Position numbers and translations under genes: made by a program. The notes under the pieces are model-generated. The model ran no database searches, was not told the origin of the DNA, and was given only the letters and a program-made list of their open reading frames with translations. Positions 1,675 to 45,067 of a DNA stretch of 64,000 bases are shown here, piece by piece (the stretch's first letter is position 1; each line of letters opens with the position of its first letter). Source of the DNA: an uncultured Gammaproteobacteria bacterium (GTDB lineage: Bacteria > Patescibacteriota > Patescibacteriia > Magasanikbacterales > UBA922). The stretch covers positions 620 to 64,619 of the forward strand of contig CAYGHM010000002.1 in assembly GCA_964349825.1 (NCBI GenBank), read 5' to 3'.

Positions 1675-2478
1675 TTATTTTTTTATAGCATTCATTAACC
1701 CAACAACCAATAACGTAGCCACACCGACCATAACGATCGTTGCTCCAGAAGGAAGATCAAAATAGTAAGAAAGAATAAGACCGAGGATAACAAAAAATAT
1801 ACTTGCAATCACGGAGTACCACTCAAACTGCACAAACGATCGAGAGAGCATTTTTCCTACCGTACTTGGCAAAATAAGAAGACCGCTGACTAGTACAATA
1901 CCCACTACCTTGATTGATAACACAACCGTCACGGCAATAAGAATAGTAAGCAACAGTTCCAACGGCGATCTTTTAATTCCGCTCATTGCCGCTCCCTCTG
2001 GATCAAGCGTAAGAAAAATAAATTGCCGTCTCAAAAGAAGAAGCGTCATAAAAATAAGCACACCAACCACACCCATGACGTAAATATCAACCGTACGTAT
2101 TGCCAGCAAATTTCCAAATAAATAACTCACGAGTTCCGGAACATACCCCTCATAAAACTGAAGTAAAATAATACCGAGTGCCATCCCGGTTACAAAAATA
2201 ACACCAATGGCCGTATCCTGAGAAACATTTTTTGTTTTTCCCAAAAGATGAATACCCGTAGCAATAAAGACACTCGCAACCAATGCGACAGGAAGCGGTG
2301 ACCATCCCAATAAAATTGCCAAAGCAACAGCAGCCAGCGACGCATGTGCTACACCATCCCCAACAAAACTCATTTTTCTTGCAATCGCATAAACGCCGAG
2401 CCATCCCAAAAGCACCGCAATAATAATCCCGGCAATAAACGCGCGTTGCATGAATGGGTAGGTCAATATATCAAACAT
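1675..2478 (-). CDS. znuB: zinc/manganese ABC transporter permease (ZnuB/ABC-3 family)
   Basis: A multi-TM protein, MFDILTYPFMQRAF...GWLGVY..., typical of ABC-3 permeases. It lies in an operon with znuC and znuA. The start was moved to the internal Met at 2478, because the listed N-terminal extension covers a palindromic repeat. Confidence 0.7.
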   Translation of the reverse strand: MFDILTYPFMQRAFIAGIIIAVLLGWLGVYAIARKMSFVGDGVAHASLAAVALAILLGWSPLPVALVASVFIATGIHLLGKTKNVSQDTAIGVIFVTGMALGIILLQFYEGYVPELVSYLFGNLLAIRTVDIYVMGVVGVLIFMTLLLLRRQFIFLTLDPEGAAMSGIKRSPLELLLTILIAVTVVLSIKVVGIVLVSGLLILPSTVGKMLSRSFVQFEWYSVIASIFFVILGLILSYYFDLPSGATIVMVGVATLLVVGLMNAIKK

Positions 2479-2489
2479 AGATGAAGGTG

Positions 2490-2592
2490 ATAGGAAATAC
2501 AGAATAGAGAATGAAGAATAGGGAATAAAATACACACGCTCTTCATTCTATATTCTCTATTCTTCATTCTCTATTCTGTATTCTGTATTCTG
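2490..2592. repeat. long imperfect palindrome built from GAATAGA/GAATGAA heptamer runs (family copy 1), lying between znuC and znuB
   Basis: aggaaatacagaatagagaatgaagaatagggaataaaa...ctcttcattctatattctctattcttcattctctattctgtattctg forms two inverted arms. Confidence 0.6.
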
Positions 2593-2593
2593 A

Positions 2594-3313
2594 TCAATGT
2601 TTATGCTCACAATCATGCGCATAATGTCTCACATGTCCGCCGTACATTTTTTCAATCACATCTGCAGTGAGTACTTTTTTGGGTAACCCGGTACAGAGCA
2701 AACGGCGATTAAGACAAATCACATTCGTCGCATATTGATACACAAAATCAAGTTCATGCGAGATAACAATAATAGTGGTGCCATCTTCATGATTCAAACG
2801 GTGTAATAATTCATACAATGCTTCTTCTCCACCAACATCAATACCACTCGTCGGTTCATCAAAAATTAAAATATCTTTTTTATGTAATAATGCCCGAGCA
2901 ACCAAAATACGTTGCAGTTGACCTCCAGACAATATTCCAAGTCGTTTCTTTTCACTACCCGCCAAGCCAACACGAGACAATGCACGAGAAATCAATCGAG
3001 CATCTCCGCCTTTTGCCAATAACAGAAATTCTTCTACACTAATAGGAATCGTACGATCGACATTAAACCGTTGTGGCACATAGCCAATATTACCCATGAA
3101 CGACACCGGATCTTTTCCATTGATCTGAATTTTTCCTTCGGTTGGATTTTCAAGTCCAATTAACAAAGTTGCAAGTGTCGACTTTCCCGATCCATTTGGC
3201 CCGACCAATGCAACAATATCTCCTTTTTCAATAGTAAAGGAAATATCTTCAAGTGCGACAAAATCACCAAATTTTTTGGTGACGTTTGAAACGCTGATAA
3301 AAGGAGTAGGCAT
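2594..3313 (-). CDS. znuC: zinc ABC transporter ATP-binding protein
   Basis: Walker A GPNGSGKST, ABC signature LSGGQLQR and Walker B ILIFDEPTSGID are present. The start MPTPFISVSNV overlaps the znuA stop (TAAtATG). Confidence 0.8.
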   Translation of the reverse strand: MPTPFISVSNVTKKFGDFVALEDISFTIEKGDIVALVGPNGSGKSTLATLLIGLENPTEGKIQINGKDPVSFMGNIGYVPQRFNVDRTIPISVEEFLLLAKGGDARLISRALSRVGLAGSEKKRLGILSGGQLQRILVARALLHKKDILIFDEPTSGIDVGGEEALYELLHRLNHEDGTTIIVISHELDFVYQYATNVICLNRRLLCTGLPKKVLTADVIEKMYGGHVRHYAHDCEHKH

Positions 3314-3314
3314 A

Positions 3315-4232
3315 TTAATGTGATACAGCGAGCGCCTGTTCCACTTCGCGAACATTTGCCGAAATTAAATCAATATAACTTTCTTTACCATCTTTTCCTC
3401 CCATTTCATCGAGCACACCAATCGCCGCACCAACATCGGCAGCAAACGCATCGAGTCCTGCTCGAGATAACTGTGGTTCGATAAACAAAACACGAATATT
3501 ATAGTCTTTCACTACGCCATGTAGATCAGCTAAATATTGTGGACTTGGTTCTTTGCCAACGAAGGGTTCATACGTAGCGACGACATGTAGATTAAAATGA
3601 TTGGCAAAATAATAAAGTGCGTCATGAAAGGTGAGAATATCACGCTTAGTAAATTCTGCCAATTGATTCTTCCAAAGAATATCTTGTGCTTCAAGTTTGG
3701 TAATGAACTGATCTTTGCGTTCAGTATATGCTTCTTGATGAGAAGGGTCCAATCGAATTAATTCATCCGTAATAGTCGCCGCCATAATTTTGGCATTATT
3801 CGGATCAAGCCAGTAATGCGGATCAACAGCACCTTGCTCTTCTTCGTCTTCGTGTTCATTACGAACGGTTTCACGAAGGGTAATACCTTTATCCATACCA
3901 ATTACCCGCACATTTGGTATCGCCTGCTGAATTGATGCGATCCAATCATCCACACCATACCCAATATTAAATATAATATCAGCACCCTGTAGACCTTTCA
4001 CTGTCTCCGCGGAAATATCAAATGAATGTGGACTGGTTCCAGGAGGGACAATTAATTTCACATCTGCATCCGGTCCAGCAATACTGCGTGTGATATCGTA
4101 GATAGGAAATATAGTCGCAGCAACAACGGTACGATTATTTTCAATAATTACATTTTTAGGAGAAAGAAAAACTACAGCAGTACCTGCGATGACTGCCAAT
4201 ATTCCCAAAATGATATATCCTGTTTTTTTCAT
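3315..4232 (-). CDS. znuA: zinc ABC transporter substrate-binding protein (TroA/ZnuA family), with an acidic/His-rich loop
   Basis: Has a signal peptide or TM, the HYWLDP motif and a NEHEDEEEQGAVDPH loop. It lies in an operon with znuC and znuB downstream of a Fur-family gene. Confidence 0.8.
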   Translation of the reverse strand: MKKTGYIILGILAVIAGTAVVFLSPKNVIIENNRTVVAATIFPIYDITRSIAGPDADVKLIVPPGTSPHSFDISAETVKGLQGADIIFNIGYGVDDWIASIQQAIPNVRVIGMDKGITLRETVRNEHEDEEEQGAVDPHYWLDPNNAKIMAATITDELIRLDPSHQEAYTERKDQFITKLEAQDILWKNQLAEFTKRDILTFHDALYYFANHFNLHVVATYEPFVGKEPSPQYLADLHGVVKDYNIRVLFIEPQLSRAGLDAFAADVGAAIGVLDEMGGKDGKESYIDLISANVREVEQALAVSH

Positions 4233-5153: not shown

Positions 5154-5155
5154 AC

Positions 5156-5281
5156 AACATACGAATTACGAATCCTCGAAGACTCGGTACGAATAGCGAA
5201 TAATTAAAAGACGTTCTCCTAAGTAGAGAACGTCTTTTTTAGTTTAATTCGTTATTCGGTATTATTCGTAATTCGCATGTT
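5156..5281. mobile_element. MITE-like repeat copy A: 18-bp terminal inverted repeats flanking an internal terminator hairpin
   Basis: Left TIR aacatacgaattacgaat; right TIR attcgtaattcgcatgtt. The interior holds aaaagacgttctc-ctaagta-gagaacgtctttttt. Homologous copies sit at 15770, 30788 and 44953. Confidence 0.55.
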
Positions 5282-5317
5282 GTCATCTCTGGCAATTCAG
5301 GGACAAAACAGGTAATA

Positions 5318-5346
5318 TTGACAAAAGCAGGCAGTCATGATATACT
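5318..5346 (+). promoter_or_regulatory. sigma70-type promoter TTGACA-N17-TATACT (extended -10 TGa) driving GC-rich cassette 1
   Basis: tatTTGACAaaagcaggcagtcaTGaTATACT. Confidence 0.5.
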
Positions 5347-5517
5347 CACCCGTTCTCAAGATAGTGTATCTGAGGTTCTTTGACAACTGAATACCCTCGT
5401 AGCAGGGAGAAACATGCCCACGGACCCCGTGGCATGAGGTTCAAACCCCCATGCCCATTCGCGGGCATTATGTCACTCTCTGTTACAGAACCATTTCCCC
5501 AACACCACGAGGACACC

Positions 5518-6351: not shown

Positions 6352-6559
6352 CCAAGACAAAACCAAGGAGCACTGAGTGGGGCGGCAGGCTGGATCATCC
6401 AGACCTCGCCGCCCCACTCGGAGATATACACAGAGAGTGACATACCCAAACAATAATATATAACGCATAATAGGCGTTTTTTTATTTGGTAAATTCTGGT
6501 AAACTAGATAAGAATAGAGAATAGTGAATGAAGAATAAAGAATTTAATATTAATAATAT

Positions 6560-7015
6560 ATGGCAAAAATTCCGGCGTTTTCGCTTGCTGATCAGGATGG
6601 GAAAATTCATTCATTGAAAGACTATAAAGGCCAATATCTGCTTTTGTATTTTTATCCAAAAGATAATACGCCAGGCTGCACCACCGAAGCACAATGTTTC
6701 CGTGACCGCATGGGTGAATTTAAAAAACACGGTGTACAAATAATCGGTGTCAGTATTGACGATGAAAAATCACATAAAAAATTTGTTGATAAATATTCAT
6801 TGAATTTTCCACTACTTGCTGATACTGACAAAAAACTCGTATCGGCTCTTGGTCTCTGGGTAGAAAAATCCCTATATGGCAGAAAATATATGGGAACACA
6901 ACGAGATTCATTCCTGATTGGACCAGACGGAACCATTCTCAAACACTATGAAAAAGTAAGTCCGGCGAAACATGTCGATGAAGTGATGGAAGATATAAAA
7001 CAATTAAAAAACTGA
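6560..7015 (+). CDS. bcp: thiol peroxidase / peroxiredoxin Bcp
   Basis: YFYPKDNTPGCTTEAQCFRD is the peroxiredoxin CxxxxC motif. Confidence 0.85.
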   Translation: MAKIPAFSLADQDGKIHSLKDYKGQYLLLYFYPKDNTPGCTTEAQCFRDRMGEFKKHGVQIIGVSIDDEKSHKKFVDKYSLNFPLLADTDKKLVSALGLWVEKSLYGRKYMGTQRDSFLIGPDGTILKHYEKVSPAKHVDEVMEDIKQLKN

Positions 7016-7025: not shown

Positions 7026-7301
7026 TCAGTTTTTTAATTTATTTTCTAATGTGTTTTTCAATACCTTACCCAATGTCTCTCTTCCCCTACCAGTTTTGTA
7101 ATAAGACTCCTGATCCCGAGCATCTTGCTCACTTAAAAAAGATTCAGCGTGAATTAACTGAAGAGGGCGTCTGCCCTTGGTGGATGTATTGAGTCCAGCG
7201 TTATGTTGCTCAATTCTTTTTGATAAATCAGTAGTGTAACCGGTATATAATTTTTTATCTTTTAAACTAAACAAAACGTATACATAATACCACATACACA
7301 C
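7026..7301 (-). CDS. GIY-YIG nuclease-family protein
   Basis: YVYVLFSLKDKKLYTGYTTDLSKRIEQHNAG...GRRPL matches the GIY-YIG motifs. Confidence 0.7.
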   Translation of the reverse strand: MCMWYYVYVLFSLKDKKLYTGYTTDLSKRIEQHNAGLNTSTKGRRPLQLIHAESFLSEQDARDQESYYKTGRGRETLGKVLKNTLENKLKN

Positions 7302-7339
7302 CCCTTATTATACAAAAATCCGCCATAAAGGCGGATATG

Positions 7340-7423
7340 TGGGCCGGGCATGATTCGAACATGCGAAGGCGCAAGGCCAGCAGATTTACAGTCTGCCCCG
7401 GTTGACCGCTTCGGTACCGACCC
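7340..7423 (-). tRNA. tRNA-Tyr (GTA), type II with long variable arm
   Basis: The reverse complement GGGTCGGTACCGAAGCGGTCAACCGGGGCAGACTGTAAATCTGC...TGTTCGAATCATGCCCGGCCCA has acceptor, anticodon and T stems that pair, and an anticodon loop CUGUAAA. Confidence 0.75.
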
Positions 7424-7502
7424 ATCTAACTCATTTACAATGACAGCTAGTGATTATTAGTTAACAACGGTTAGTTAGCAATCATTAAATGTCCATTAAT
7501 TG

Positions 7503-7594
7503 TGGGCCGGGCATGATTCGAACTGCGAAGCCCGCCAACGTCGGCGGGCAGCAGATTTACAGTCTGCCCCGGTTGACCGCTTCGGTACCGACCC
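7503..7594 (-). tRNA. tRNA-Tyr (GTA), second copy, with an unusually long GC-rich variable arm
   Basis: Same acceptor, D, anticodon and T arms as copy 1. The variable arm is TGCCCGCCGACGTTGGCGGGCTTCGCA and the total length is about 92 nt. Confidence 0.6.
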
Positions 7595-7688
7595 AAGATC
7601 AATATTCAATTTTCAATTTCTAATTTTTAATTGCATTCCACTTAGCACATAAATGGAAATTGAGAATTGAAAATTGGAAATTTCTAAT

Positions 7689-7764
7689 TGGAGCCAACTC
7701 GGGGATTCGAACCCCGGACCGACGGTTTACAAAACCGTTGCTCTACCAGCTGAGCTAAGTTGGC
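7689..7764 (-). tRNA. tRNA-Thr (TGT), CCA encoded
   Basis: Reverse complement GCCAACTTAGCTCAGCTGGTAGAGCAACGGTTTTGTAAACCGTCGGTCCGGGGTTCGAATCCCCGAGTTGGCTCCA; the acceptor stem is perfectly paired and the anticodon loop is UUUGUAA. Confidence 0.85.
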
Positions 7765-15769: not shown

Positions 15770-15854
15770 AACATGCGAATTACGAATAATACCGAATTAC
15801 GAATATATATACTTTGGTAATTCGTTATTCGTCCCCATTCGTAATTCGCATGTT
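15770..15854. mobile_element. MITE-like repeat copy B (short, 85 bp) between the GT4 stop and the holB start
   Basis: aacatgcgaattacgaat...attcgtaattcgcatgtt: perfect 18-bp TIRs with an internal ccgaattacgaat/attcgttattcg subrepeat. Confidence 0.55.
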
Positions 15855-15856: not shown

Positions 15857-17065
15857 TTACATACCAAGCAGTACTTTTTTTGTCGCATCTGCACTAGCGC
15901 GCCAAGAAAAACGCGTAACTTCTTTATATCCTTTTATTATTGCAGCCTGCTGCAGTTCACGATCTTGCATAAACATATGCATTTTTTTCATTAATTCATG
16001 CACATGAAATGCATCGACATACGCAATAGCATTTCCTCCCACTTCTTCCAAACTATTCTCACGTGAGGCAATCACCGGAACCCCCACTGCCATGGCTTCC
16101 AGAATTGGCAACCCAAACCCTTCATACAAACTGGGAAAAACAAATACTTCGGCTCCAGCTAACAAATAAGGGATATGAGATTCTTCCACCCATCCAGTTT
16201 TAATAATATCAACGCTATGAACGCTTCCATTTATTTCATCCACCACTTTTTTATATCCAACACCCGGTTTCCCTGCCAAGACAAGCTGCACGTCATTATT
16301 AGGATATACACTTCTCATCTGGTCAAACGCTTTCACCAACCGCCACGTATTCTTTTTTTCTTCCAAACGGCCAACAGTCAGTATATAGGGTTTGGTAATG
16401 CCATATATTTCTTTTACCCGACGTATTTCTTCGACATCATCCTTCACCTCTTTTCTAAATACGCCCACATCATACGCATGTGGTACAACATAAATATGTC
16501 CAAATAATTTTTTTATTTCTTCGGAGACAACATCATATCCTCTATGAAGCGAAGCGTCTTTGCTTTCATGTTTTATTGCTTTAATGGTTTGATGACGACA
16601 AAGTCTCACCAGCTCATCGCGAGTAAAATAACTTGGTACAATAATACGCCACAAATTTCTCACCGCCACTTTTGCCGACCAAATACTGTACCATCGTTCA
16701 AACCATGTATACACAATTGGAAAACGAAAAGCCGCGACATCATGAACGGTCATGACTGTTTTTTCAGGATGAATAATGGGTGCCACATGCGCAGGAATAA
16801 ATAATACATCTGGGGCATGAAATACCATTTCCATACTCAACCGTATTTGTGTCCAAAATCTTTTTGGCGGCCATACGAGTACTTTCGATTGCCAATTTTC
16901 TGGTAATACAGCAAGTTCACCCACAAGTGGTTCTCTCGAATATAAAATAACCCGTACAGTGGACGGGATACTTTTTTTCAATTCCTGAATTATATGAAAT
17001 GCATAGACTTCCACACCAGTCTTTTCCGTATGGTTTGCCCGAGATGCATCAATACCTATTATCAT
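15857..17065 (-). CDS. family-4 (GT-B) glycosyltransferase
   Basis: The C-terminal motif VFVFPSLYEGFGLPILEAMAVGVPVIAS is typical of GT4. Confidence 0.8.
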   Translation of the reverse strand: MIIGIDASRANHTEKTGVEVYAFHIIQELKKSIPSTVRVILYSREPLVGELAVLPENWQSKVLVWPPKRFWTQIRLSMEMVFHAPDVLFIPAHVAPIIHPEKTVMTVHDVAAFRFPIVYTWFERWYSIWSAKVAVRNLWRIIVPSYFTRDELVRLCRHQTIKAIKHESKDASLHRGYDVVSEEIKKLFGHIYVVPHAYDVGVFRKEVKDDVEEIRRVKEIYGITKPYILTVGRLEEKKNTWRLVKAFDQMRSVYPNNDVQLVLAGKPGVGYKKVVDEINGSVHSVDIIKTGWVEESHIPYLLAGAEVFVFPSLYEGFGLPILEAMAVGVPVIASRENSLEEVGGNAIAYVDAFHVHELMKKMHMFMQDRELQQAAIIKGYKEVTRFSWRASADATKKVLLGM

Positions 17066-17074: not shown

Positions 17075-17145
17075 AAGAATTTAGAATAAAGAATGAAGAA
17101 TCAAATGTATTTTATTCTCTATTCTAAATTCTTATCTCGTTGCCA
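17075..17145. repeat. GAATAGA/GAATGAA-type palindrome (family copy 3)
   Basis: gaagaatttagaataaagaatgaagaatc...tattttattctctattctaaattcttatc. Confidence 0.55.
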
Positions 17146-18139
17146 TAATACTACGCTTATAATTCTCAAGATTTTCAAGCGCAATACCCGTCCCCTTTGC
17201 GACACACAATAATGGTTCGTCTGCTACGTAGCACGGAACGCCTGTTGCCTGAGAAATCAATTCATCCAAATTGCGAAGTTGAGACGATCCACCACTCATG
17301 ATAATTCCCTTATCAATAACATCGGCAGATAATTCCGGCGGTGTTTTGTGAAGCACGTCTTTCACCGCTTCGATCAATCCTTCCAAATCATGTTGAAGCG
17401 CTTGCGTCACATCATTTGAGGTAACAGAAATCATTTTTGGCAAACCGCTTGCCATATCACGTCCTTTTATTTCCATTTTTAATGGGTTATCCATATACAT
17501 GGCTGACCCAACCTTAATTTTTAAATCCTCAGCCGTTCTTTCTCCGATGGCAAGCCCGTGCATACGTCGAATAAATTCACCAATTGATGCATCAAATCGA
17601 TTACCACCAATACGCACTGATCCACAAGACACAATACCACCAAGAGAAATAACCGCAATTTCGGCAGTTCCTCCACCAATATCAATAATCATATGTCCGC
17701 TTGCACTTCCAATAGGAATATCAGCACCAATCGCTGCAACAATAGGTTCTTTAATAATGTATGCGGCGCGTGCGCCTGCCATCATGGCTGCATCAATAAC
17801 AGCACGACGTTCTGTGGAAGTAATTCCCGCAGGAACCGCAACCATTACTTCTGGACGAAATAAACGAATACCACCAAGCGCTTTGTTAATAAAATAACGA
17901 AGCATGGCTTCTGTTGTGTGATAATTCGCAATCACCCCATCTTTTAATGGCCGTTCTGCGATAATGGTATCTGGCGTTCTTCCAATCATCTCTTTTGCTT
18001 CTGCACCCACCGCCAATACTTGTCTGTCATCTCGAGAAATTGCAACGACCGACGGTTCATTAATCACAATACCGCGCTTTGGAATATGTACCAAAACATT
18101 TGTCGTCCCAAGATCAATTGCTACTTTTTTAATCCACAT
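17132..18139 (-). CDS. mreB: rod-shape determining actin homolog MreB
   Basis: IDLGTTNVLV, PSVVAI and MIIDIGGGTAEIAVISLGG are actin-fold motifs. Confidence 0.9.
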   Translation of the reverse strand: MWIKKVAIDLGTTNVLVHIPKRGIVINEPSVVAISRDDRQVLAVGAEAKEMIGRTPDTIIAERPLKDGVIANYHTTEAMLRYFINKALGGIRLFRPEVMVAVPAGITSTERRAVIDAAMMAGARAAYIIKEPIVAAIGADIPIGSASGHMIIDIGGGTAEIAVISLGGIVSCGSVRIGGNRFDASIGEFIRRMHGLAIGERTAEDLKIKVGSAMYMDNPLKMEIKGRDMASGLPKMISVTSNDVTQALQHDLEGLIEAVKDVLHKTPPELSADVIDKGIIMSGGSSQLRNLDELISQATGVPCYVADEPLLCVAKGTGIALENLENYKRSIMATR

Positions 18140-19633: not shown

Positions 19634-19770
19634 AGTTAATGCTTTAATATTTCCGAATCTACAAATTTGCCCCAATCAACGAATTCTACTAATCTACCAA
19701 TTATAAAATGCTGAATATCTGTAGTTTTGTAGAATTTGTAGGTTAGGAAAAATTTGTAGATTCGGACGTA

Positions 19771-21258
19771 TTACTTTCTTTTTTTCTTAGAAACATTGAA
19801 TCCTAAATATTTACCAAACATCATATGTGTTACCGCATCAATAGCGGGAATTGCACTTACAAAAATCATAGAAATAGGAACTAGTACCCACTGTAATGCC
19901 ATAGTAATCATTTTATAGCGCGGTTCAGAATCGGGCATTTTTGGCAAAAGTGGAAAACTCAATACAGCGGTCATAAACAGTCCAACCATAGAAATAGTCA
20001 TGAGCGTTTCGAGCATGTGTGGCGCATTAAAATATAATGCCGTTTGGCGAACTTCCTCACCGGCCACCCACATAGGCAGACGACCAAGAATAGTAATGAT
20101 AATTGCCACCAAACACCATGACCATTTTCCTTCCCATTCCAAAAAAATATATTTTGCTTTTTTCCACAGAGGAATTTTATTTCCTTTTAAACGGAATTCC
20201 CACAATAAATACGGCACGTGTTCCACGCCCCACGCCCAACGGCGTTGTTGTTTGTACAAATTTTTAATACTCTGCCACCACGAATCATCACGCGGCGTAT
20301 CCATAGACACAGGAAGATACATCGGTGTAACAGAATAATCTCCATTATACGTCAAAAGACATTGATAAAAAATACGAGAATCCTCACTCACAATACGCTT
20401 ATCATGAAACCCGGCATCAACCAGTGCGCGAAAACTCAATGAATGCGATGAAAATGTCACTAGTCCGTCCTGACGCGCAAGCGAGGTAAGCATCCAGAAG
20501 GTGGTACCAAATGCCATAATACGCAATACCGCAGGCGACTCCCACATATTATTATTATACAAAGCAATCGGCTGATAAGAACTTCTCGTTGGATTTGAAT
20601 GCGTACAGTATAAATACGTGAGATACCCAAAATACTGTGGATGGCACACGGTATCAATATCAAAAATAGTCGCAATAATATCATCGTATTCCCAGCCTTT
20701 TTTATCAATATATTTTTTTGCTTCCCGTTCTGCATAATGAAGATTGGATCCTTTGCCCGGAATTTCTTCTTGCAAATGCATAGGATGACAGGTGCCAATA
20801 ATCGTTCCAAAGCTATCGCCGTAAGTCTGTTTTACCAATTGCAAAATATGTTCATGATGTGTTTTAGCCCGTTCTTCACCAGCAATGACAATTAAAAACT
20901 GTTCTTTGTCATACGCGGCGTCACAAACACTTTGTATCGCAGTATGCACAACATCCCACGTCTCATCATACAATGTCAAAAATACAACATGTCTTTTTTT
21001 CTTCCAATCCGGAATCTCATGAAATAATTTATCTTTCCAATCAAGGCGTCTAGCCACACGGAAACGAGTCCAGGCAACCGTAAGATAAAAGGCAAAATTA
21101 AGTACTTTTAATACCCAATAAATATCAAATACAATAATAAAATAGATCATCCATAGAGGACGAACGTACGCAAGAAATAAAGACAAAATAAGAGTCAACC
21201 AAATAGAAAGACCCGGGAGCACTTCGTACAACCGATACCGATGATAATCCGACAACAT
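19771..21258 (-). CDS. processive family-2 glycosyltransferase (cellulose/chitin-synthase-like) with multiple TM helices
   Basis: The QQRRWAWG (QxxRW) motif, D-rich loops (LYDETWD, IFDIDTV) and N- and C-terminal TM helices are present. Confidence 0.65.
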   Translation of the reverse strand: MLSDYHRYRLYEVLPGLSIWLTLILSLFLAYVRPLWMIYFIIVFDIYWVLKVLNFAFYLTVAWTRFRVARRLDWKDKLFHEIPDWKKKRHVVFLTLYDETWDVVHTAIQSVCDAAYDKEQFLIVIAGEERAKTHHEHILQLVKQTYGDSFGTIIGTCHPMHLQEEIPGKGSNLHYAEREAKKYIDKKGWEYDDIIATIFDIDTVCHPQYFGYLTYLYCTHSNPTRSSYQPIALYNNNMWESPAVLRIMAFGTTFWMLTSLARQDGLVTFSSHSLSFRALVDAGFHDKRIVSEDSRIFYQCLLTYNGDYSVTPMYLPVSMDTPRDDSWWQSIKNLYKQQRRWAWGVEHVPYLLWEFRLKGNKIPLWKKAKYIFLEWEGKWSWCLVAIIITILGRLPMWVAGEEVRQTALYFNAPHMLETLMTISMVGLFMTAVLSFPLLPKMPDSEPRYKMITMALQWVLVPISMIFVSAIPAIDAVTHMMFGKYLGFNVSKKKRK

Positions 21259-21383
21259 AAAAAATTATGGGTAGCGACGCGATTTATCGCGCCGTACCCA
21301 AAAATAACAACCACTCTTAGAAATAACGTAGATATCATACGTTAAAATCGCCAAAAAGTCTATCACATGAACACCGCCAATTC

Positions 21384-21412
21384 TTGACAAAAAACAATGT
21401 TCCTGATATGCT
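21384..21412 (+). promoter_or_regulatory. sigma70-type promoter TTGACA-N17-TATGCT for GC-rich cassette 2
   Basis: ttcTTGACAaaaaacaatgttccTGaTATGCT. Confidence 0.45.
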
Positions 21413-21518
21413 CTTCGATTCAGATGGCAGATCCAGGCCTATTGCCTCATGTCTCTGAAAGACAATTAAAAAATGATTCGTGGCATAGTACAAAAAAGGA
21501 GGTACTCTCCCGCGAATC

Positions 21519-22139: not shown

Positions 22140-22328
22140 TAGTACTCTGTACTAGCCCGACCACCGCTCCTTCTTGAGAGTAGTTTCCCAACCCAGTGTC
22201 TTTTTTCCTGCCCTACCCTCCCGACGTAATGTCGGGGACCAAGGCGGACGTTCTACCCCCGGTATGCTTCATCGCTGCCGGGGGTTCGTCATTTTTATGC
22301 TTATTTTAGCGTAAATATGGCAAAAGTA

Positions 22329-22357
22329 TTGACAAAACTGCCGAATTATGATACACT
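22329..22357 (+). promoter_or_regulatory. sigma70-type promoter TTGACA-N17-TACACT (extended TG) for GC-rich cassette 3
   Basis: taTTGACAaaactgccgaattaTGaTACACT. Confidence 0.45.
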
Positions 22358-22571
22358 TTGCCGTTCGGTAAACAATGAAATTACCCCTTTGGGAGACCTT
22401 TCTTGTACCCGATGATCTTTGACAAGAGAATAATGTGTGAAAAATGATTTGTGGGATTTTCAGTTTCTTAGGGAGATTGAAAAACCCACAAATCGACGCA
22501 AGGCGCGTCCGAATGTGGTAACCCCTGCTGATCCGTTAAGTCGGATTGGCCATTGCTCAACGGAGCTCATC

Positions 22572-23361: not shown

Positions 23362-24786
23362 TTATAGAATAGTAACACATCCATTATTCGCATCGACTTC
23401 AACATACATACCGCTCTCCAATAATTTTGTTGCCACTTTGGTGCCGATCACACATGGCTTTTTCATCTCTCTCGCAATAATTGCTGCATGGCAAGTAATA
23501 CCACCTTCATCAGTGACAAACCCAGCAGCACGTTCCATGGCAGGCACCATATCGGGTGTCGTCATAGCAGCAACAATAATATCGCCAGCTTCAACCAACA
23601 AAAGATCTTTTTTATGTTTAATTTTTTTCACCTTTCCTCTCACGAGACCACGATACGCGACAGCCCCCTTAATTTCCTCTATTTCTTCTGCTTTATGGAG
23701 ATATGTTTCACGCCAAATTACTTCATCCTCTTTTCTGTCTGAGAATTGTACATTCCCCGGTTCAAGAGCGAGTAACGCAAACCAGTCATCACGACGAGAT
23801 TTTACATCTAAACCAATTGTTTTCCACTGAGCAAGTTCATCCGCACGCAAGGCAGAAATTTCCTCAAGTGTCACCCCCATTCGTTTTGCAATTTCTTCCA
23901 AAAGAGGTACGATCCGAGCATACGCGCATGCGAGATAATCGGTACGGCATGTACGAAAATAAACTATCTCTTTGGCAATCGTTACCACATGTCGAATGTC
24001 ATCATCAGCATGCAATGTGTTGAGCAACTCTTTCGACCGCTGTAAATGTATATTTACGTCCTCCTTCATTTCATGAAGTACTTTTTCGCAATCATTTTCC
24101 AATACCTGATTTAATCGCACGCGAACATCAGAAACATCCCACGCTGTACCACTTCCACCACGAATATTTGTCCACCCAAATTCCTGAGCATGGTCTTGTA
24201 AAAGCTGATCTAACTTATCAGATGGATTTTCCAACTCGCCTCGCTGAATCTGAGCGCCAATCTCAAGTAATGCATATTTTTCAACCGTCTGCACATTTAC
24301 CTTTTCAGGAAAACTAATAATTGCCAATTCCTCCTCAAGATCAGCTCTGTTTTTCAAAAAATCACGCAAACGATCTTCTATCGGAAATTGCAGGCCGTAT
24401 CCTGGCAATGTAACCGCAAACGTCTGAAACATTGTGAGAAAATTATCCCACATAGCCATGAGTTCACTGTCTTTTTTCGAAGTAAAATCATTTTTTTCTA
24501 TCTCTTTCGCATACGCAACCATCTTTTCACCATAGGTATATATTGTATCAAATACACCAGCAAGAAATCCCCGCTCCTCGGTTTCTTTTTTGAGTAATTT
24601 TTCAATAAGCTCAAAACTTTCCGGTCCGTACCACCATTCACCATTAAAATATCCGCAAGTAATATACGTATTATCAAGATGATACAGTGTCTTATAATGT
24701 TCAGGCGTTGAAAGTCCCCGAACATAAATGTCCGCAATCAAAACAGTGTATGGACGAGTAACAATAAGATTTAATTTGTTGTGCAT
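23362..24786 (-). CDS. PEP-utilising-enzyme swivel-domain protein, paralog 4 (unique N-terminal domain + C-terminal phosphohistidine domain)
   Basis: The C-terminus GDIIVAAMTTPDMVPAMERAAGFVTDEGGITCHAAIIAREMKKPCVIGT is the PEP-utilisers mobile domain with its catalytic His. Confidence 0.75.
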   Translation of the reverse strand: MHNKLNLIVTRPYTVLIADIYVRGLSTPEHYKTLYHLDNTYITCGYFNGEWWYGPESFELIEKLLKKETEERGFLAGVFDTIYTYGEKMVAYAKEIEKNDFTSKKDSELMAMWDNFLTMFQTFAVTLPGYGLQFPIEDRLRDFLKNRADLEEELAIISFPEKVNVQTVEKYALLEIGAQIQRGELENPSDKLDQLLQDHAQEFGWTNIRGGSGTAWDVSDVRVRLNQVLENDCEKVLHEMKEDVNIHLQRSKELLNTLHADDDIRHVVTIAKEIVYFRTCRTDYLACAYARIVPLLEEIAKRMGVTLEEISALRADELAQWKTIGLDVKSRRDDWFALLALEPGNVQFSDRKEDEVIWRETYLHKAEEIEEIKGAVAYRGLVRGKVKKIKHKKDLLLVEAGDIIVAAMTTPDMVPAMERAAGFVTDEGGITCHAAIIAREMKKPCVIGTKVATKLLESGMYVEVDANNGCVTIL

Positions 24787-24788
24787 AA

Positions 24789-26117
24789 TTAATTTTTAGT
24801 AAGAATGGTAATTTTTCCTATATGCGCATCTACCTCGACCAGGTCTCCGTCCTTCAAAACTTTTGTTCCAATCTTTGTCCCAATGATACACGGCTTATTC
24901 ATCTCTCGAGCGACAATTGCTGCATGCGATGTAATACCACCAATATCAGTGACAAATGCCGCAGCGCGACGCATACCCGTCAAAAAATCAGGTGTTGACA
25001 TGGCAGCGACGAGAATATCACCTTGTTCAATCTTCGCGCATTCTTTTGCATGAAGCACTACTTTTACTTTTCCAACTACTTTCCCCGGCTGCGCGCACAT
25101 CCCGGTGATTTCTGTTGGCCGCTCTTCTGTGCTCTTCACTTGTTCCTCTTTTCCTTCAAATAATTCAACAGCGCTATCAGTAATTTCCAAAATAAAATTA
25201 TTGCGTGTATCAAATTTCGGCTTGATGTACATGCGGCCGTGCAATACATTTTTTACCTCCTCAATGCGCATGTGTAATAATTCATCATACTGCACAATAT
25301 CGGCAAAACATATCATGACCATTTCTCGAAATAAATATGTGCCATAACAATTGGCTTCCCATTTTTCCGTACGCAATCGAAGAAGTTGCTCAGCATACCG
25401 GACAAATGGTGAATCAACTGCTTCCATTTCTTTTTGTTCTTCGGGTGCATGATGAAGACTATCACGAAGCATCACATACGCTTCAATAACGGTCCATGGA
25501 TGGCCTTTAAAATATTTCATCCCGAGGTATCCATATTTTTTACAAAACGTTTGCAGATCTTCTGTAAGAGAACTCGATAATTCATGTAATTCTTTTCCTT
25601 CCGTATCAAGCAATTCATCACGATATCTGTTTGCCAACTCCGTCAACAGCACTGATGCGCGTGTCGTATCTGTCACAGCAGAACGCATCGCATGCGGTGG
25701 AATACCTTGTCTCGTCAATTCAGCGCTCAACCCGGACTCCAAAACAAATCGCGCAATAGATCCGGTAGCTCGCATTGCTTCATCGAAATATTCATCAATA
25801 AGTTCGGGATGCTGACGCGCAGTATGGAGTTCTGTTTCAAATCTTTTTAAAAATGTTTTGAAGCGATCAAAAATAGTTTCAATCTCATGAATAAGATTAG
25901 TATATTGTTCATCCGTAAGAAGTTTCGTTCCCATTTCCGTATACTGCGCCAATGACCAATTGATATCCCCATTAATATGATTGTACTGAATATACGGATA
26001 CTGAAATGAAAAACCTAATTTCGTAAAATCGGTATATGTATAAATACCACTCAATACCAAATCCTGGGTCAATAAATCAGACCGATGGTTGACAATAATT
26101 TCCCAATCTCTTTGCAT
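24789..26117 (-). CDS. PEP-utilising-enzyme swivel-domain protein, paralog 3
   Basis: C-terminal GDILVAAMSTPDFLTGMRRAAAFVTDIGGITSHAAIVAREMNKPCIIGT; the N-terminal ~330 aa are unrelated in sequence to the other paralogs. Confidence 0.75.
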   Translation of the reverse strand: MQRDWEIIVNHRSDLLTQDLVLSGIYTYTDFTKLGFSFQYPYIQYNHINGDINWSLAQYTEMGTKLLTDEQYTNLIHEIETIFDRFKTFLKRFETELHTARQHPELIDEYFDEAMRATGSIARFVLESGLSAELTRQGIPPHAMRSAVTDTTRASVLLTELANRYRDELLDTEGKELHELSSSLTEDLQTFCKKYGYLGMKYFKGHPWTVIEAYVMLRDSLHHAPEEQKEMEAVDSPFVRYAEQLLRLRTEKWEANCYGTYLFREMVMICFADIVQYDELLHMRIEEVKNVLHGRMYIKPKFDTRNNFILEITDSAVELFEGKEEQVKSTEERPTEITGMCAQPGKVVGKVKVVLHAKECAKIEQGDILVAAMSTPDFLTGMRRAAAFVTDIGGITSHAAIVAREMNKPCIIGTKIGTKVLKDGDLVEVDAHIGKITILTKN

Positions 26118-26121
26118 ATAT

Positions 26122-27540
26122 CTACGCTTTAGTCAGCACTTTAATAGTCCCTTTACTCGCATCGACTTCTACTATATCCCCATCTTTCAATATAGTCGTC
26201 GCCACTTTGGTGCCTACAATACAAGGCACACCAAGCTCGCGAGAAACAATCGCCGCATGAGAAGTAAGTCCGCCAGTATCCGTGACAACGGCGCTTGCCT
26301 TTTTCATGATAAAAACATATTCAGGTGTTGTCATGGAAGTAACCAATACATCTCCATCATCAAACCCTACCACATTATGCGGATCAAGCACAATTTTTAC
26401 TTTCCCTGTCACCAGACCCTTTCCTTTACAGGCAATAATACCACTAAAATTTTCAGTACTAGCGTCTACTTGCACATCCACATAAAGTTTCCAGCCGTCG
26501 AGTGTTTCTGATGAGCCCAAAAACTGAACGGTGTTTTCACTTCCGTACACACCAAAAGCTTTCTTTCTCTCATTCGGATCAACAGCGACCGTACGACCAT
26601 TTAGTAGTTCAATAATTTCTGCCCCGGAACAATTCAATAACGTGTTCACATCGAACTGTGGCAAACGCTGTGCTGCCTCAACAAGCAAAATATGCTTATA
26701 ATGCAAATAAATCCAGATATCTTTTTTTCGTGTATCCTGCCATACGATTGCGTCGGTAATCGCTTCTGCAATTGCCATAACTGAATCAGGCAATTTATAT
26801 TCTTCCTGTGTTTCAATTTTTTGCTGACGCACGAGAGCCAATCTTTCCTCTACCTCTTTTCGTATATCCAGAGAAAGTGTTTTTTTTCTTTCTGCAAAAA
26901 ATTCTACTGGCAATACTTCTACATTGGCATAACTATTTCGCAACCAAAAATATTTTTGTTGATGTACAGCAATATCATCCGTCTCGACCAAATCGATTTC
27001 TTCTTCCTGATAAAATGATTTTCCTTCAGGGGCAGTCAATATTTCCATGACATGCATCATCTGTTCTTCTGGAACAAACGGAACAAGCGAACGACGCAAT
27101 ACATCACTTGATCCATAGTTTGATAATTCTGGCAGAATGGCATATACCCAAAATGTCTTCAATAATTTTCCAAAACGTAATAACACATCTTGAAAGGCTT
27201 CGAATGATAAAAGGGACAAGTCAGTAGCGCCAATCTCTTGATTAAGCATGGTAAAATCATGATGTGCCACCATCCACTGTGCGCGAACAGACTCTCGTTT
27301 CTCACGTGGAAGCATCATTTCCAGAAACAGTTTTTCTCCATTTCGCTGCAATGCATCAGCTTCATGCATCCACACCATTCGATTCTCTTTAAATAAAGCT
27401 AAAAAATCTGGCCATCCATATCCAGGAAATTCCTCTGGATAGTCAATAAAAAAAACATCAAAACAATCTGCATAATAAATGTAGAATGGCGTAGGCCCCC
27501 ATTTGAAAATTTCTTTATGTGGATCAAGGTATTGTTTCAT
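26122..27540 (-). CDS. PEP-utilising-enzyme swivel-domain protein, paralog 2
   Basis: C-terminal GDVLVTSMTTPEYVFIMKKASAVVTDTGGLTSHAAIVSRELGVPCIVGT. Confidence 0.75.
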   Translation of the reverse strand: MKQYLDPHKEIFKWGPTPFYIYYADCFDVFFIDYPEEFPGYGWPDFLALFKENRMVWMHEADALQRNGEKLFLEMMLPREKRESVRAQWMVAHHDFTMLNQEIGATDLSLLSFEAFQDVLLRFGKLLKTFWVYAILPELSNYGSSDVLRRSLVPFVPEEQMMHVMEILTAPEGKSFYQEEEIDLVETDDIAVHQQKYFWLRNSYANVEVLPVEFFAERKKTLSLDIRKEVEERLALVRQQKIETQEEYKLPDSVMAIAEAITDAIVWQDTRKKDIWIYLHYKHILLVEAAQRLPQFDVNTLLNCSGAEIIELLNGRTVAVDPNERKKAFGVYGSENTVQFLGSSETLDGWKLYVDVQVDASTENFSGIIACKGKGLVTGKVKIVLDPHNVVGFDDGDVLVTSMTTPEYVFIMKKASAVVTDTGGLTSHAAIVSRELGVPCIVGTKVATTILKDGDIVEVDASKGTIKVLTKA

Positions 27541-27543
27541 AAA

Positions 27544-28548
27544 CTAAGTTATTTTTCTAATAATTCCTCTGTTCGCATCAACCTCAATAATATCTCCATC
27601 TTTCAACAATTGCGTTGCAATCTTCGTTCCAATAACGCAAGGAATCTTCATCTCTCTAGAAACGATAGCGGCGTGACAGAGTAATCCACCCTCATCAGTA
27701 ACAAAGGCTCCGGCCAATTTCATTGCTGGTAAAAAATCCGGAGTTGTCATTGGCGAAACCAAAATATCACCCTGAAGTACTTTTGATAAATCTTCCTTGG
27801 TATACACAATTTTTACCTTTCCTATTACAGTGCCTTTATACCCTATCTGTCCGCTAATTTCTTTTGCATCAACAACGTCATCAGATGTCAATTCAAAGGC
27901 TTTTTCTGTTGCAAGTTTTTCTATACTGAGAGGATAAATATTTGCAGCACAATCCTCCACAAATAGATTGCTTACATCTGAAATTCTAGAAAATTCTATA
28001 TATTCTATTAATTGTTTTACCTGTATAACTTTTACCTGTTCTAAGGGTAACCCGCTTGATACAAGAGATCTTCTTATAAAATCATCAGCGAGGCTCCAAA
28101 GATCATCTCCTTCTCTCTGTTCTTTACTCCAGCTACGTATATCATCCGGCCATTCTTCTGTCATTGAAGAAATAAACATGACGTGATTTGAAAAACGAAG
28201 GTCGTTAAATAGTCGACACATTTCCAAAACGTCTTTTGGATATACATCTTTTTTTTCTGAAAGTTTTCTTATGCTTTCGGCGATTCGTGTATAATCTTTT
28301 TTTGTTTGTTCAAATAATACACTATCAGTAAGTAGGCTATCTTTTATCTTATTATTCCAGTAATCAAACGATTCCTTGTTTAACCAAAATTCAACAACTC
28401 CATTTTTTACATACTTCAGGACCGGACTACTCAACACCGGATCAAAAGAATCAACCAAGGCTTCTGGAAAATGATAAAAACCAGAAGATGCTAGTAAAAA
28501 TGTAATATCTCTGGAATATGTTTTTTCAAAAACAATTTTTTTATTCAC
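27544..28548 (-). CDS. PEP-utilising-enzyme swivel-domain protein, paralog 1 (shortest, 334 aa)
   Basis: C-terminal GDILVSPMTTPDFLPAMKLAGAFVTDEGGLLCHAAIVSREMKIPCVIGT. Confidence 0.75.
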   Translation of the reverse strand: MNKKIVFEKTYSRDITFLLASSGFYHFPEALVDSFDPVLSSPVLKYVKNGVVEFWLNKESFDYWNNKIKDSLLTDSVLFEQTKKDYTRIAESIRKLSEKKDVYPKDVLEMCRLFNDLRFSNHVMFISSMTEEWPDDIRSWSKEQREGDDLWSLADDFIRRSLVSSGLPLEQVKVIQVKQLIEYIEFSRISDVSNLFVEDCAANIYPLSIEKLATEKAFELTSDDVVDAKEISGQIGYKGTVIGKVKIVYTKEDLSKVLQGDILVSPMTTPDFLPAMKLAGAFVTDEGGLLCHAAIVSREMKIPCVIGTKIATQLLKDGDIIEVDANRGIIRKIT

Positions 28549-28638
28549 ACTGTTTGAATCTTATTCAATCAAAATTAAATTACACTTCTCCTTCATCGTA
28601 TTTTACAAATAACTTTCAAATATATTTGGATATAAATT

Positions 28639-29583
28639 TTACCCCAAAGTCGTAATTGGTCGACTCTGCACAACATAAATAGTACTGTTCTGCATTGCCC
28701 ATTCAATATCACAAGGGAAACCATAGTGCTTTTCAATGCGCATAATCACATCCGACAATTCAACAATCTGTCGACCGGATAATTTTTGCACTGCCTTTTT
28801 ATTATCTTCAACATCTACCCATTCATTACCGCCCTCTGACTTTCGTACCATCATGCGTTCCTGATCAGCAATATTAATATCGAGAATATTACGTGGTTCT
28901 TTTTCCAATACATAACTATCTGGCGTAATCTGTCCGGACACCACTGCTTCTCCCAATCCCCAACCCGCTTCGATAATCATTTGATTATAATCTTGTGTTA
29001 CCGGGTGAACAGAAAATGCGATACCAGAAATTTCTGACTGAACCATCACTTGCACCACAACCGCCACTGAGACGTGGGTTTCACTAAATCCTTTTTCAAA
29101 TCGGTAAAAAATCGCACGCGGCGTAAACAATGATGCCCAACAACGACGAACATTCGTAAGTAAATTTTCTTCGTTTGTATTTAAATAACTTTCCAACTGT
29201 CCTGCCCACGCAGCCTCTGCTCCATCTTCTGCTGTCGCACTCGATCGAACCGCGACATATTCAGCATTCAATCCGTGAAATGATTCAATAATTGATTTTC
29301 CCAAATCTTCAGGAAAAGCCACATTCAAAATAAGCGCATGGATCTGCTCAGAAGCGTTTTCAATCGTATGAATTTCTTGAACATTTACCTTGCCTAAAAT
29401 CGCATTGATCTCTACATTCAAATCAGTTTCTTCAATAAAACGATCAAAAGCAGGAGCGGTAACAACAAATCCTGGAGGTACTGGAATGCCTGCTCGAGTC
29501 ATTTCTCCGAGAGAAGCACCCTTTCCTCCGGCAATATCAACATGATCTTTGGAAAGCTCAGTAAAAGGAACTACGTATTGCAT
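28639..29583 (-). CDS. stand-alone ATP-grasp nucleotide-binding domain protein of PEP synthase / pyruvate phosphate dikinase N-terminal type
   Basis: MQYVVPFTELSKDHVDIAGGKGASLGEMTRAGIPVPPGFVVT...AVRSSATAEDGAEAAWAGQ...FSVHPVT...IEWAM is the PPDK_N/PpsA N-terminal signature. It is the first gene of the five-gene operon. Confidence 0.8.
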   Translation of the reverse strand: MQYVVPFTELSKDHVDIAGGKGASLGEMTRAGIPVPPGFVVTAPAFDRFIEETDLNVEINAILGKVNVQEIHTIENASEQIHALILNVAFPEDLGKSIIESFHGLNAEYVAVRSSATAEDGAEAAWAGQLESYLNTNEENLLTNVRRCWASLFTPRAIFYRFEKGFSETHVSVAVVVQVMVQSEISGIAFSVHPVTQDYNQMIIEAGWGLGEAVVSGQITPDSYVLEKEPRNILDINIADQERMMVRKSEGGNEWVDVEDNKKAVQKLSGRQIVELSDVIMRIEKHYGFPCDIEWAMQNSTIYVVQSRPITTLG

Positions 29584-29686: not shown

Positions 29687-30070
29687 CTATTTCTTCTTCG
29701 TAATATTCGGCTCGGCACTATACTCCGGCAATATATACATTCCCGGCTTCTGTCGGAGTAATGTTTTAATCATATCCTGAGGCATTTTTGCCTGTTCTCC
29801 GGTTATGGCAAGAAGTGGCATATGAAACACATAGCCAAATGTATTTGCCACCGTCACCGCAATACGGGTACTGCTAAATCCTCCCGCCCCCACGACTACC
29901 AGTATACCTCGAATCTCTTCGACCTTCCGACCTAGTTCCGTTAAAAATAAGTCAATACAGGTAAGCACTTCACGGTTCATCACCTGATACATTTTTCTCT
30001 CAATTTTTTGCTCATCAAAAAAAGCCAGGACAATCTGGTCACGCACTGAGGTGTCAATAACTAGATACAT
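29687..30070 (-). CDS. tsaB: short TsaB/YeaZ-like protein (t6A biosynthesis partner of TsaD), N-terminal domain only
   Basis: MYLVIDTSVRDQIVLAFF...VVVGAGGFSSTRIAVTVANTFGYVFHMPLLAI parallels YeaZ MRILAIDTA...GPGSFTGVRIG... Confidence 0.55.
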   Translation of the reverse strand: MYLVIDTSVRDQIVLAFFDEQKIERKMYQVMNREVLTCIDLFLTELGRKVEEIRGILVVVGAGGFSSTRIAVTVANTFGYVFHMPLLAITGEQAKMPQDMIKTLLRQKPGMYILPEYSAEPNITKKK

Positions 30071-30909: not shown

Positions 30910-30967
30910 TGTCTATCACGATTACATAGAGTATAATACCGCTAGGCCCAAAAGTCAAAGTATCATT

Positions 30968-33571: not shown

Positions 33572-33582
33572 CGATTGAACGA

Positions 33583-45065: not shown

Positions 45066-45067
45066 TG

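Follow-up and report, generated by a model that had tools for sequence, protein, structure and literature searches.

The stretch analysed here, 64 kb of contig CAYGHM010000002.1 (hereafter the window), carries a family of intergenic palindromes whose arms are tandem heptamers of the GAATAGA and GAATGAA type (the GAAT palindromes). We hold it to be reasonably probable that these palindromes are young, lineage-specific, small, non-coding and non-autonomous dispersed repeats of foldback-like build, resident in a Magasanikbacteria-like bacterium of the candidate phyla radiation (CPR). Whole elements, or single arms, have been added to stop–start junctions inside operons that were compact before, and in one case to a 5' leader, as comparison with relatives shows; the arms have since gained and lost whole heptamers, a pattern that fits replication slippage. 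The copies decay: the quality of their stems falls from z = -9.0 to z = -2.2.

The nearest named homologues of the MreB protein encoded in the window belong to Candidatus Magasanikbacteria (CPR/Patescibacteria; 86-88% identical), and this placement is in keeping with gene content, DUF4012 for example, and with the metagenomic origin of the matching sequences. CPR genomes are tiny and tightly packed, and are usually thought to be poor in repetitive or mobile DNA; intergenic spacers make up about 8% of the window. Comparisons drew on independent assemblies that are 98.3-99.9% identical in DNA to the window (strain level), on syntenic relatives (L207, L210 and L211, MreB 93-95% identical; L217-L219, ZnuB 76-85% identical) and on 80 more distant loci (MreB 72-89% identical). 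A search for AGAAT arrays took in about 1.0 Mb from 85 related loci, and about 60 window proteins were scanned against Pfam.

Anatomy and folding of the GAAT palindromes

On the forward strand, the four loci reported in an earlier note on this DNA share one build: a phased run of (A)GAATNNN units, a short loop and a complementary run of NNNATTC units, the commonest units being GAATAGA, GAATGAA and GAATAAA. The phased GAAT heptamers and inverted arms are present as that note described them, and the half-site it placed near 6507-6545 is real, being a single arm of five units. A phased-GAAT scan of the window found only the four palindromes and this one-armed array. The units are 7 nt long, contiguous and inverted between the arms, in line with the note's statement that the family is not CRISPR.

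Copy 1 illustrates the arrangement. Its left arm (about 2496-2529) reads AATACA, GAATAGA, GAATGAA, GAATAGG, GAATAAA; a loop follows (about 2530-2544), and the right arm (about 2545-2593) then reads ATTCTAT, ATTCTCT, ATTCTTC, ATTCTCT, ATTCTGT, ATTCTGT, ATTCTGA. The right arm of copy 3 holds a 14-nt tandem duplication. In copy 4 the GAAT phasing is kept, yet the arms are only 62% alike, the left one being of the GAATAGA type and the right one of the GAATTGAAAAT type. The solo arm lies within a divergent spacer, 14 nt upstream of a bcp/AhpC-type gene (6560-7015, + strand). Another solo GAAT arm is found just beyond position 1 of the window in the same genome (L212 5631-5658), between a bAvd-family gene and a dinB-like gene. 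Copies 1-3 have loop and inner-arm sequence in common (GAATAAAATACA ... TTCTTCATTCT) and are found in both orientations, and arms at different loci have the order of units near the loop in common.

The string GAATAGAGAAT, with at most one mismatch allowed, occurs 21 times in the window versus 1.7 expected, a count reached by none of 100 shuffles. No short period other than 7 shows strong enrichment there, and all phased GAAT arrays fall in intergenic spacers.

Folding each copy, a check that the earlier note had proposed, gave -44.1 kcal/mol for copy 1 (z = -9.0), -21.1 kcal/mol for copy 2 (z = -5.6), -30.4 kcal/mol for copy 3 (z = -3.2) and -16.8 kcal/mol for copy 4 (z = -2.2). Copies 1 and 2 are near-perfect long hairpins, and copies 3 and 4 are degenerate. 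A hairpin would form in either transcript orientation, as had been predicted, but the predicted length of 30-50 bp was too generous: the real stems are about 27 bp and about 20 bp, plus two that are interrupted. A known RNA family was ruled out, Rfam 15 giving no match at gathering level; the only sub-threshold matches were spurious eukaryotic miRNA hairpins (29-36 bits versus cut-offs of 60-100, E up to 1).

The GAAT elements are not assembly artefacts, since at least five independent assemblies carry them. Several contigs of other assemblies end inside such palindromes, as multi-copy repeats are expected to break assemblies. In three independent assemblies (L003, L004 and L005), the contig ends at 15775-15838, inside a palindrome of a different family (CGAATTA units, described below).

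Filled and empty junctions

The sites of copies 1-3 are compact in relatives. The znuC/znuB junction, 115 nt in the window, is reduced to 'TAG TGT ATG' (3 nt) or to a gene overlap in relatives whose ZnuB is 85% and 76% identical. Between mreB and the GT4 gene, the window has 66 nt, but L207 and L210 (both with a 95% identical MreB) have 4 nt ('gataaTTATatg'). The junction between the 198-aa gene and the tsaB-like gene measures 117 nt in the window versus 1 nt ('taaTatg') in L210 and L211; in L207 it holds an unrelated 92-nt palindrome of GCAAAT units, and it is short in most of 14 more distant relatives. These comparisons show copies 1-3 to be insertions at the three junctions, the znuC-znuB copy being a recent one, into what was formerly a 3-nt junction.

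Other palindromes occupy such junctions elsewhere. In the 80 more distant loci, the mreB/GT4 junction consists either of a few nucleotides or of a palindrome of lineage-specific 7-9 bp units, and the tsaB-like junction follows the same pattern. The DUF4012/mreB junction is empty in the window and in L207, but contains a GCAGATT-unit palindrome in L210 and a CAATTTT-unit palindrome in L211. No AGAAT-phased array was found in the roughly 1.0 Mb of related sequence.

Within the strain-level set, copy 2 is kept in six near-identical strains, with substitutions in the loop only, and copy 1 shows point changes in other strains. Strain L216, with an identical ZnuB and DNA 98.3% identical to the window, differs more: relative to the window, its copy 1 lacks three heptamers in the 5' arm, has two more in the 3' arm and carries one substituted unit. 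This variant still folds well (z = -7.0).

All four full copies lie between co-directional genes, inside probable operons, and the genes flanking them are functionally unrelated (Table 1). They begin 0-3 nt past the upstream stop codon and end 9-17 nt before the next ATG, and no Shine-Dalgarno-like sequence is present between the end of a full copy and that ATG. In the window and the 80 related loci taken together, 42 of the 49 classifiable palindromes of this build lie between co-directional genes (versus 77% of all junctions), and most of them fill their spacer.

This arrangement poses the question of how downstream translation without a Shine-Dalgarno sequence survives an insertion of 60-115 nt. 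The elements would be co-transcribed with the operon, and the RNA hairpin would bring the upstream stop codon and the downstream start codon, which lies 9-17 nt beyond the stem, close together, so that coupled translation could continue. We infer that the elements are tolerated in operon junctions because the hairpin rejoins stop and start codons. The likeness of the two arms could be due either to each copy being born as a palindrome or to hairpin-templated correction. If the elements alter mRNA stability or the znuC:znuB ratio at all, this would be a by-product and not a conserved function.

Table 1. Palindromes, solo arm and flanking genes in the window
Feature	Position	Strand	Remarks
GAAT copy 1, palindrome	2496-2589		32-nt inverted repeat, 97% complementary; fills the 115-nt znuC/znuB spacer
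GAAT copy 2, palindrome	17075-17133		arms 23 nt, 91% complementary; 66-nt mreB/GT4 spacer
GAAT copy 3, palindrome	30080-30185		arms 22 nt, 95% complementary, plus more interrupted pairing; 117-nt spacer
GAAT copy 4, palindrome, degenerate or chimeric	50997-51068		between lemA and the M48 peptidase gene
GAAT solo arm	6511-6546	+	five GAATNNN units, no partner arm; 82-89% identical to arms of full copies
CAATTTN-unit palindrome	7601-7682		T-rich arm first; z = -3.0; between tRNA-Thr and tRNA-Tyr
CGAATTA-unit palindrome	15770-15854		AACATGCGAAT termini; z = -6.8; empty site in relatives
CGAATTA-unit palindromes, other copies	5154-5283, 30788-30910, 44868-45066		AACATGCGAAT ends
AATCTAC-unit palindrome	19645-19773		z = -8.6; between a GT2 gene and a DUF4012 gene
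znuB	1675-2478	-	flanks copy 1; cluster fur-znuA-znuC-znuB
znuC	2594-3355	-	flanks copy 1
GT4 glycosyltransferase gene	15857-17065	-	flanks copy 2
mreB	17132-18139	-	flanks copy 2
tsaB-like gene	29687-30070	-	flanks copy 3
conserved 198-aa gene	~30188-30787	-	flanks copy 3
lemA	50433-50996	+	flanks copy 4
M48 peptidase gene	51080-51964	+	flanks copy 4
tRNA-Tyr	7502-7595	-	flanks the CAATTTN palindrome
tRNA-Thr	7689-7764	-	flanks the CAATTTN palindrome

Sister families, spread and function

At least three further palindrome families of the same build are present in the window, with CGAATTA, AATCTAC and CAATTTN units. Palindromes of at least four families account for about one-fifth of its intergenic DNA (element lengths summed versus the roughly 5 kb of listed spacers).

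Two CGAATTA copies, those at 5154-5283 and 44868-45066, can be aligned over their whole length, one 49-nt arm showing just a single mismatch, and their neighbour genes are unrelated. Both contain a central hairpin made of an A-run, a G+C stem and a T-run, reminiscent of a bidirectional terminator, and the two hairpins differ by paired substitutions. On this evidence, the CGAATTA family looks like a mobile element that would bring its own terminator. Because terminators sit inside two of these palindromes, we had considered that arms might be laid around pre-existing local hairpins ('wrapping'); this idea was ruled out, as the two copies align throughout, terminator hairpin included, beside unrelated genes. 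One CGAATTA copy has an extra 72-nt insert within one arm. The copy at 30788-30910 occupies the 5' leader of the 198-aa gene, downstream of a conserved TTGACT...TATACT promoter. The same leader is empty in L207 (4890-5000) and holds a GCAGAT-unit palindrome in L210 (4800-4975) and L211 (4860-5060); the conserved leader motif GGGGGTAA falls in the loop of the window element, either as ancestral sequence or by coincidence.

At the site of the AATCTAC palindrome, relatives have spacers of 11-29 nt and no palindrome; L155, L175 and L185 contain the motif CCGAATCTAC elsewhere, at other loci. A GGCAGAT-type family is common to L207, L210 and L211, at partly different junctions, and the same junction can be held by unrelated palindrome families in sister genomes. 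The tRNA-spacer palindrome, which the earlier note called related to the GAAT copies, is real, but its polarity is opposite (the T-rich CAATTTN arm comes first) and it is a separate, older family: CAATTTN palindromes are common in relatives, and the same tRNA spacer of L211 holds an orthologous one, 81% identical. Many contigs of related CPR bacteria (L177 5539-5656, L183 357-440, L188 1096-1188, L201 1733-1817, L185 11041-11195, L155 13562-13684 and L196 10925-11007) also carry an unrelated, G+C-rich palindromic repeat whose ends are TGTCATTCCGAGCG...CGGAATGACA; once, it is nested within a heptamer palindrome.

Loop, inner-arm sequence and unit order are common to different loci, CGAATTA copies are homologous from end to end, and the GGCAGAT type is found at different junctions. 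We therefore prefer the view that whole elements or arms are copied from one locus to another, which would account for these families better than purely local growth. Local slippage and template switching remain a partial contributor, since gains and losses of units are directly observed.

Several observations weigh against dispersal of young, mobile copies. Among the roughly 60 window proteins, Pfam revealed no transposase, no RAYT (Y1_Tnp, PF01797) and no other candidate mobilising gene; the sole nuclease-like match, a GIY-YIG protein of 91 aa, has no obvious connection with the elements. No target-site duplication is visible at the three filled/empty comparisons, and no fixed termini were seen for the GAAT family, the ends differing between copies. 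The genome-wide copy number is an extrapolation from 64 kb. The arms of copies 1-3 are closer to their own partner (0.91-0.95) than to an arm of any other copy (at most 0.89), and in 40 palindromes between co-directional genes G-U pairs are weakly over-represented on the sense strand (88 versus 61); both could reflect some selection on the hairpin. The older palindrome of the tRNA spacer is retained at an orthologous position, and at least some of these elements are therefore long-lived. On its 3' side, the AATCTAC element ends in sequence similar to the ancestral spacer, which leaves room for growth in place.

The copies might instead be functional cis-acting RNA hairpins kept by selection, that is, stabilisers, RNase III or RNase E sites, or attenuators setting, for example, the znuC/znuB ratio. 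Some REP, ERIC and Correia copies have been shown to be functional RNA hairpins acting in stability, processing or attenuation. The position of the four full copies inside probable operons, the very strong folding of copies 1 and 2, the strong stem that L216 keeps despite its unit indels, the greater likeness of same-copy arms and the slight G-U bias would all suit selection on the RNA. We nevertheless regard this explanation as unlikely. In relatives whose flanking proteins are 85-95% identical, the junctions of 1-4 nt work without any element; the folds of copies 3 and 4 are hardly more stable than those of shuffled sequences; sense and antisense folds of the same 40 palindromes do not differ significantly (22 versus 18, Wilcoxon p = 0.28); and the flanking genes have no function in common. 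The attenuator or stabiliser role put forward by the earlier note is not supported as a conserved role, three copies being absent from the relatives' junctions, one varying by whole heptamers and two folding poorly. Recent gain, empty working junctions in relatives, length changes at strain level, decay and unrelated flanks all argue against conserved regulation, and the GAAT palindromes probably have no conserved function. For the znu operon the element is most likely incidental, although it might affect mRNA stability or the znuC:znuB ratio as a side effect; that this copy decouples expression of the permease, as the earlier note suggested, is a conjecture. A Zur/Fur operator, considered for the znu copy, was ruled out: the other copies flank unrelated genes, and relatives do not have the element.

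According to another explanation, each palindrome was generated in place, with no transposition involved: replication slippage would duplicate the 7 bp that form the foot of a small pre-existing hairpin, and the array would then be copied to the opposite side by intrastrand template switching. Whole heptamers are indeed gained and lost independently in the two arms between strains, copy 3 contains its 14-nt tandem duplication, single-arm arrays are common, and an end of the AATCTAC element resembles ancestral sequence. Unrelated units at the same junction in sister genomes, and heptamer palindromes with many unrelated units in very distant phyla, also point in this direction. However, growth in place would not be expected to give copies at unrelated loci of one genome the same units, near-loop unit order and loop sequence, nor two CGAATTA copies beside unrelated genes a 49-nt arm with one mismatch within end-to-end homology, and the ancestral spacers, 1-4 nt long, contain no hairpin that could act as a seed. 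As the sole origin of the family, we find it decidedly doubtful.

It is very improbable that a DNA- or RNA-binding protein (nucleoid-associated, cold-shock/S1-type or regulator) recognises AGAAT at 7-nt spacing and that the arms are its arrayed target sites, with inversion being secondary. The AGAAT core and the 7-nt phase are kept where complementarity is lost (copy 4 and the solo arm), and for Beggiatoaceae and Nostoc it has been proposed that proteins bind the heptamer arrays preceding start codons (PMC4679880; 10.1101/2022.06.06.494920). But no candidate protein is known, slippage alone is enough to preserve core and phase, and close relatives have other units in place of this family, which makes a conserved binding protein unlikely.

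The last possibility, bidirectional intrinsic terminators or attenuators (the earlier note named terminators and attenuators), is barely credible: the hairpins do come directly after stop codons and their 3' arm is U-rich in RNA, but A+U predominates in the stems, which have neither a G+C clamp nor an immediately following U-run, a terminator scan called no GAAT copy while finding 31 other sites, and termination would silence essential downstream genes that have no promoter of their own and are preceded by 1-4 nt spacers in relatives. Ordinary terminators with a G+C stem and a T-run are present at convergent gene ends of the genome.

Known repeat systems, wider distribution and other features

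Dispersal of GAAT palindromes as non-autonomous repeats invites comparison with known systems. A REP unit is a single imperfect palindrome of 20-40 nt with a conserved GTAG-type 5' motif, and its cognate RAYT (a TnpA-REP Y1 transposase) is typically flanked by REPs. Like REPs and REPINs, GAAT elements are short, non-coding, extragenic, multi-copy and genome-specific, and occur as inverted pairs forming hairpins (five loci in 64 kb, four of them inverted pairs, plus one just outside); both kinds often lie inside operons, include single arms and lack target-site duplications. Unlike the proteobacterial elements, GAAT arms are tandem 7-bp arrays in a CPR host, with no internal hairpin and no GTAG, and therefore do not have the structure of a REP unit. 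The term 'REP-like' used in the earlier note is hence apt in the loose sense of a dispersed intergenic palindromic repeat family, but not in the strict sense, as neither the GTAG motif nor a RAYT gene is found in the window.

Correia/NEMIS (Neisseria), ERIC/IRU (enterics), RUP and BOX (pneumococcus) and Nezha (cyanobacteria) are palindromes of the miniature inverted-repeat transposable element (MITE) type, transcribed within mRNAs. They resemble the GAAT family in their small size (60-200 bp), inverted ends, presence/absence polymorphism, location between co-transcribed genes and long RNA hairpins. GAAT elements measure 59-106 bp, contain no open reading frame (ORF) and show this polymorphism at orthologous sites, in three filled versus 1-4 nt empty sites. 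By contrast, the termini of those elements are defined inverted repeats, usually accompanied by a target-site duplication (TA for Correia), whereas the microsatellite-like GAAT arms have no fixed termini and no visible target-site duplication, and no related insertion sequence with which termini could be shared was seen in the window.

Cyanobacterial STRR heptamers and prokaryotic heptanucleotide long simple sequence repeats (LSSRs) were reportedly described by Mazel in 1990 and Mrazek in 2007. STRRs are also reported (Vioque, 1997) to lie inside the cyanobacterial RNase P RNA gene, reportedly in a helix. GAAT elements share with them tandem 7-bp units, several unit families per genome, an intergenic location and length polymorphism through heptamer indels. 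The host phylum and the units differ (heterocystous cyanobacteria and STRR1-3, versus GAATAGA and GAATGAA in relatives of Candidatus Magasanikbacteria), and STRRs are mostly direct arrays, whereas the GAAT family forms inverted pairs. To our knowledge, evidence from filled versus empty sites has not been described for STRRs.

Rickettsia palindromic elements (RPEs) are selfish repeats of 100-150 bp, with no tandem substructure, that lie inside genes of a reduced genome; palindromic repeats in a reduced genome are common to both systems, but the GAAT copies of the window are all intergenic. Eukaryotic Foldback (FB) transposons are kilobases long and have a known transposase. Their inverted arms of short tandem repeats, variable and unequal in length, with little or no internal sequence, resemble GAAT palindromes in build only.

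The TAACTGA repeats of marine Beggiatoaceae, proposed to be sites of a translational regulator, consist of 169 direct sets and one inverted set of a single unit (PMC4679880). They too are intergenic heptamers, a few nucleotides at most from the start codons of genes without a Shine-Dalgarno sequence, and sporadic across phyla; here, however, the arms are inverted and the unit families are many. By analogy, the closest functional counterparts would be REPs/REPINs and transcribed MITEs (Correia, ERIC), and the closest structural ones STRR/LSSR heptamers, TAACTGA repeats and foldback elements. The GAAT element is best filed as a heptamer-armed, foldback-like variant of dispersed palindromic repeats, strict membership of either the REP or the MITE class failing. 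Literature searches in open-access text for the exact repeat strings returned no papers, and those combining CPR with palindromic repeats returned nothing relevant; we thus found no earlier description of such elements in CPR bacteria there.

A scan of a genome collection (one genome per species), seeded with four phased GAATNNA units, returned matches in at least 120 contigs from many phyla; by its design, it speaks to the breadth of the build and not to its frequency or to a preference for GAAT. Among the matches listed, about a dozen have the same palindromic build with the purine-rich arm first. The 8-kb flanks of these matches contain 43 heptamer palindromes with many other units (AGGACTG, GGGTCTA, GTGTTAG and TACGAAA, for example). 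Heptamer palindromes of this build occur in Acidobacteriota, Bacteroidota, Planctomycetota, Chloroflexota and Cyanobacteria. Across these loci (L007-L126; for example L011/L081, Blastocatellia, L085, Thermoanaerobaculia, L118, and L021, Chloroflexota), the units are unrelated, even in high-G+C genomes. GGGTTCG, AGGCCCT and period-9 GTTC units are also found, and copies in Bacteroidales have a GCTGCGC-like loop motif in common. In a metagenome-assembled genome of Prevotella (JAZRXS010000182.1; L028 2386-2454), a palindrome of GAATGCA heptamers lies in frame and without stops within a metH-like ORF of 1213 aa, in the linker after the GGCCGTTPEHI motif; in this it resembles the RPEs found inside genes.

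Palindromes whose arms are arrays of tandem 7-9 bp units may, as a tentative idea that we put forward with low confidence, represent a distinct and largely undescribed kind of prokaryotic selfish DNA (a 'prokaryotic foldback element') that would have colonised CPR stop–start junctions repeatedly and independently. Such elements would spread without an element-specific transposase, for instance by hairpin-targeted or recombination-based copying together with slippage, and would persist through ribosome re-initiation across the hairpin. Since the same build is found across so many phyla, a shared mechanism of mutation or mobility may have gone unnoticed. In the organisms studied here, turnover of the palindrome families is seen even between genomes with MreB proteins 93-95% identical, and operon junctions are insertion hot spots; the elements fragment metagenome assemblies and could serve as very fine strain markers.

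Other features of the window deserve mention. Four tandem paralogues (23362-29583, - strand; 334-474 aa), each ending in a phosphoenolpyruvate (PEP)-utilising-enzyme mobile domain, adjoin a separate gene for the N-terminal ATP-binding domain of pyruvate phosphate dikinase (PPDK), forming an unusual split and amplified cluster of the PEP-synthase/PPDK type. Four long non-coding stretches (5290-5472, 21259-21518, 22140-22436 and 33233-33574), relatively G+C-rich and each with a TTGACA-like hexamer, are candidate leaders or small RNAs; Rfam gave no match for them, and a promoter scan, run on the first only, scored 11/12 at 5318-5346, with a TG extension. In the tRNA-Thr/tRNA-Tyr/tRNA-Tyr cluster (7339-7764), one tRNA-Tyr is 94 nt long and has a low score (38 bits), and the stand-alone GIY-YIG nuclease-domain gene (7026-7301) adjoins this cluster. 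Beyond position 1 of the window, in the same genome, the 23S_rRNA_IVP/bAvd-family gene (L212 5663-5804) stands beside the dinB-like (IMS) gene, which hints at a diversity-generating retroelement nearby. Finally, the GC skew is strongly negative through most of the window (-0.1 to -0.23) and climbs to roughly zero around 60-64 kb, genes are mostly on the - strand before about 50 kb and mostly on the + strand after it, and there may be a replication landmark close to the window's 3' end.

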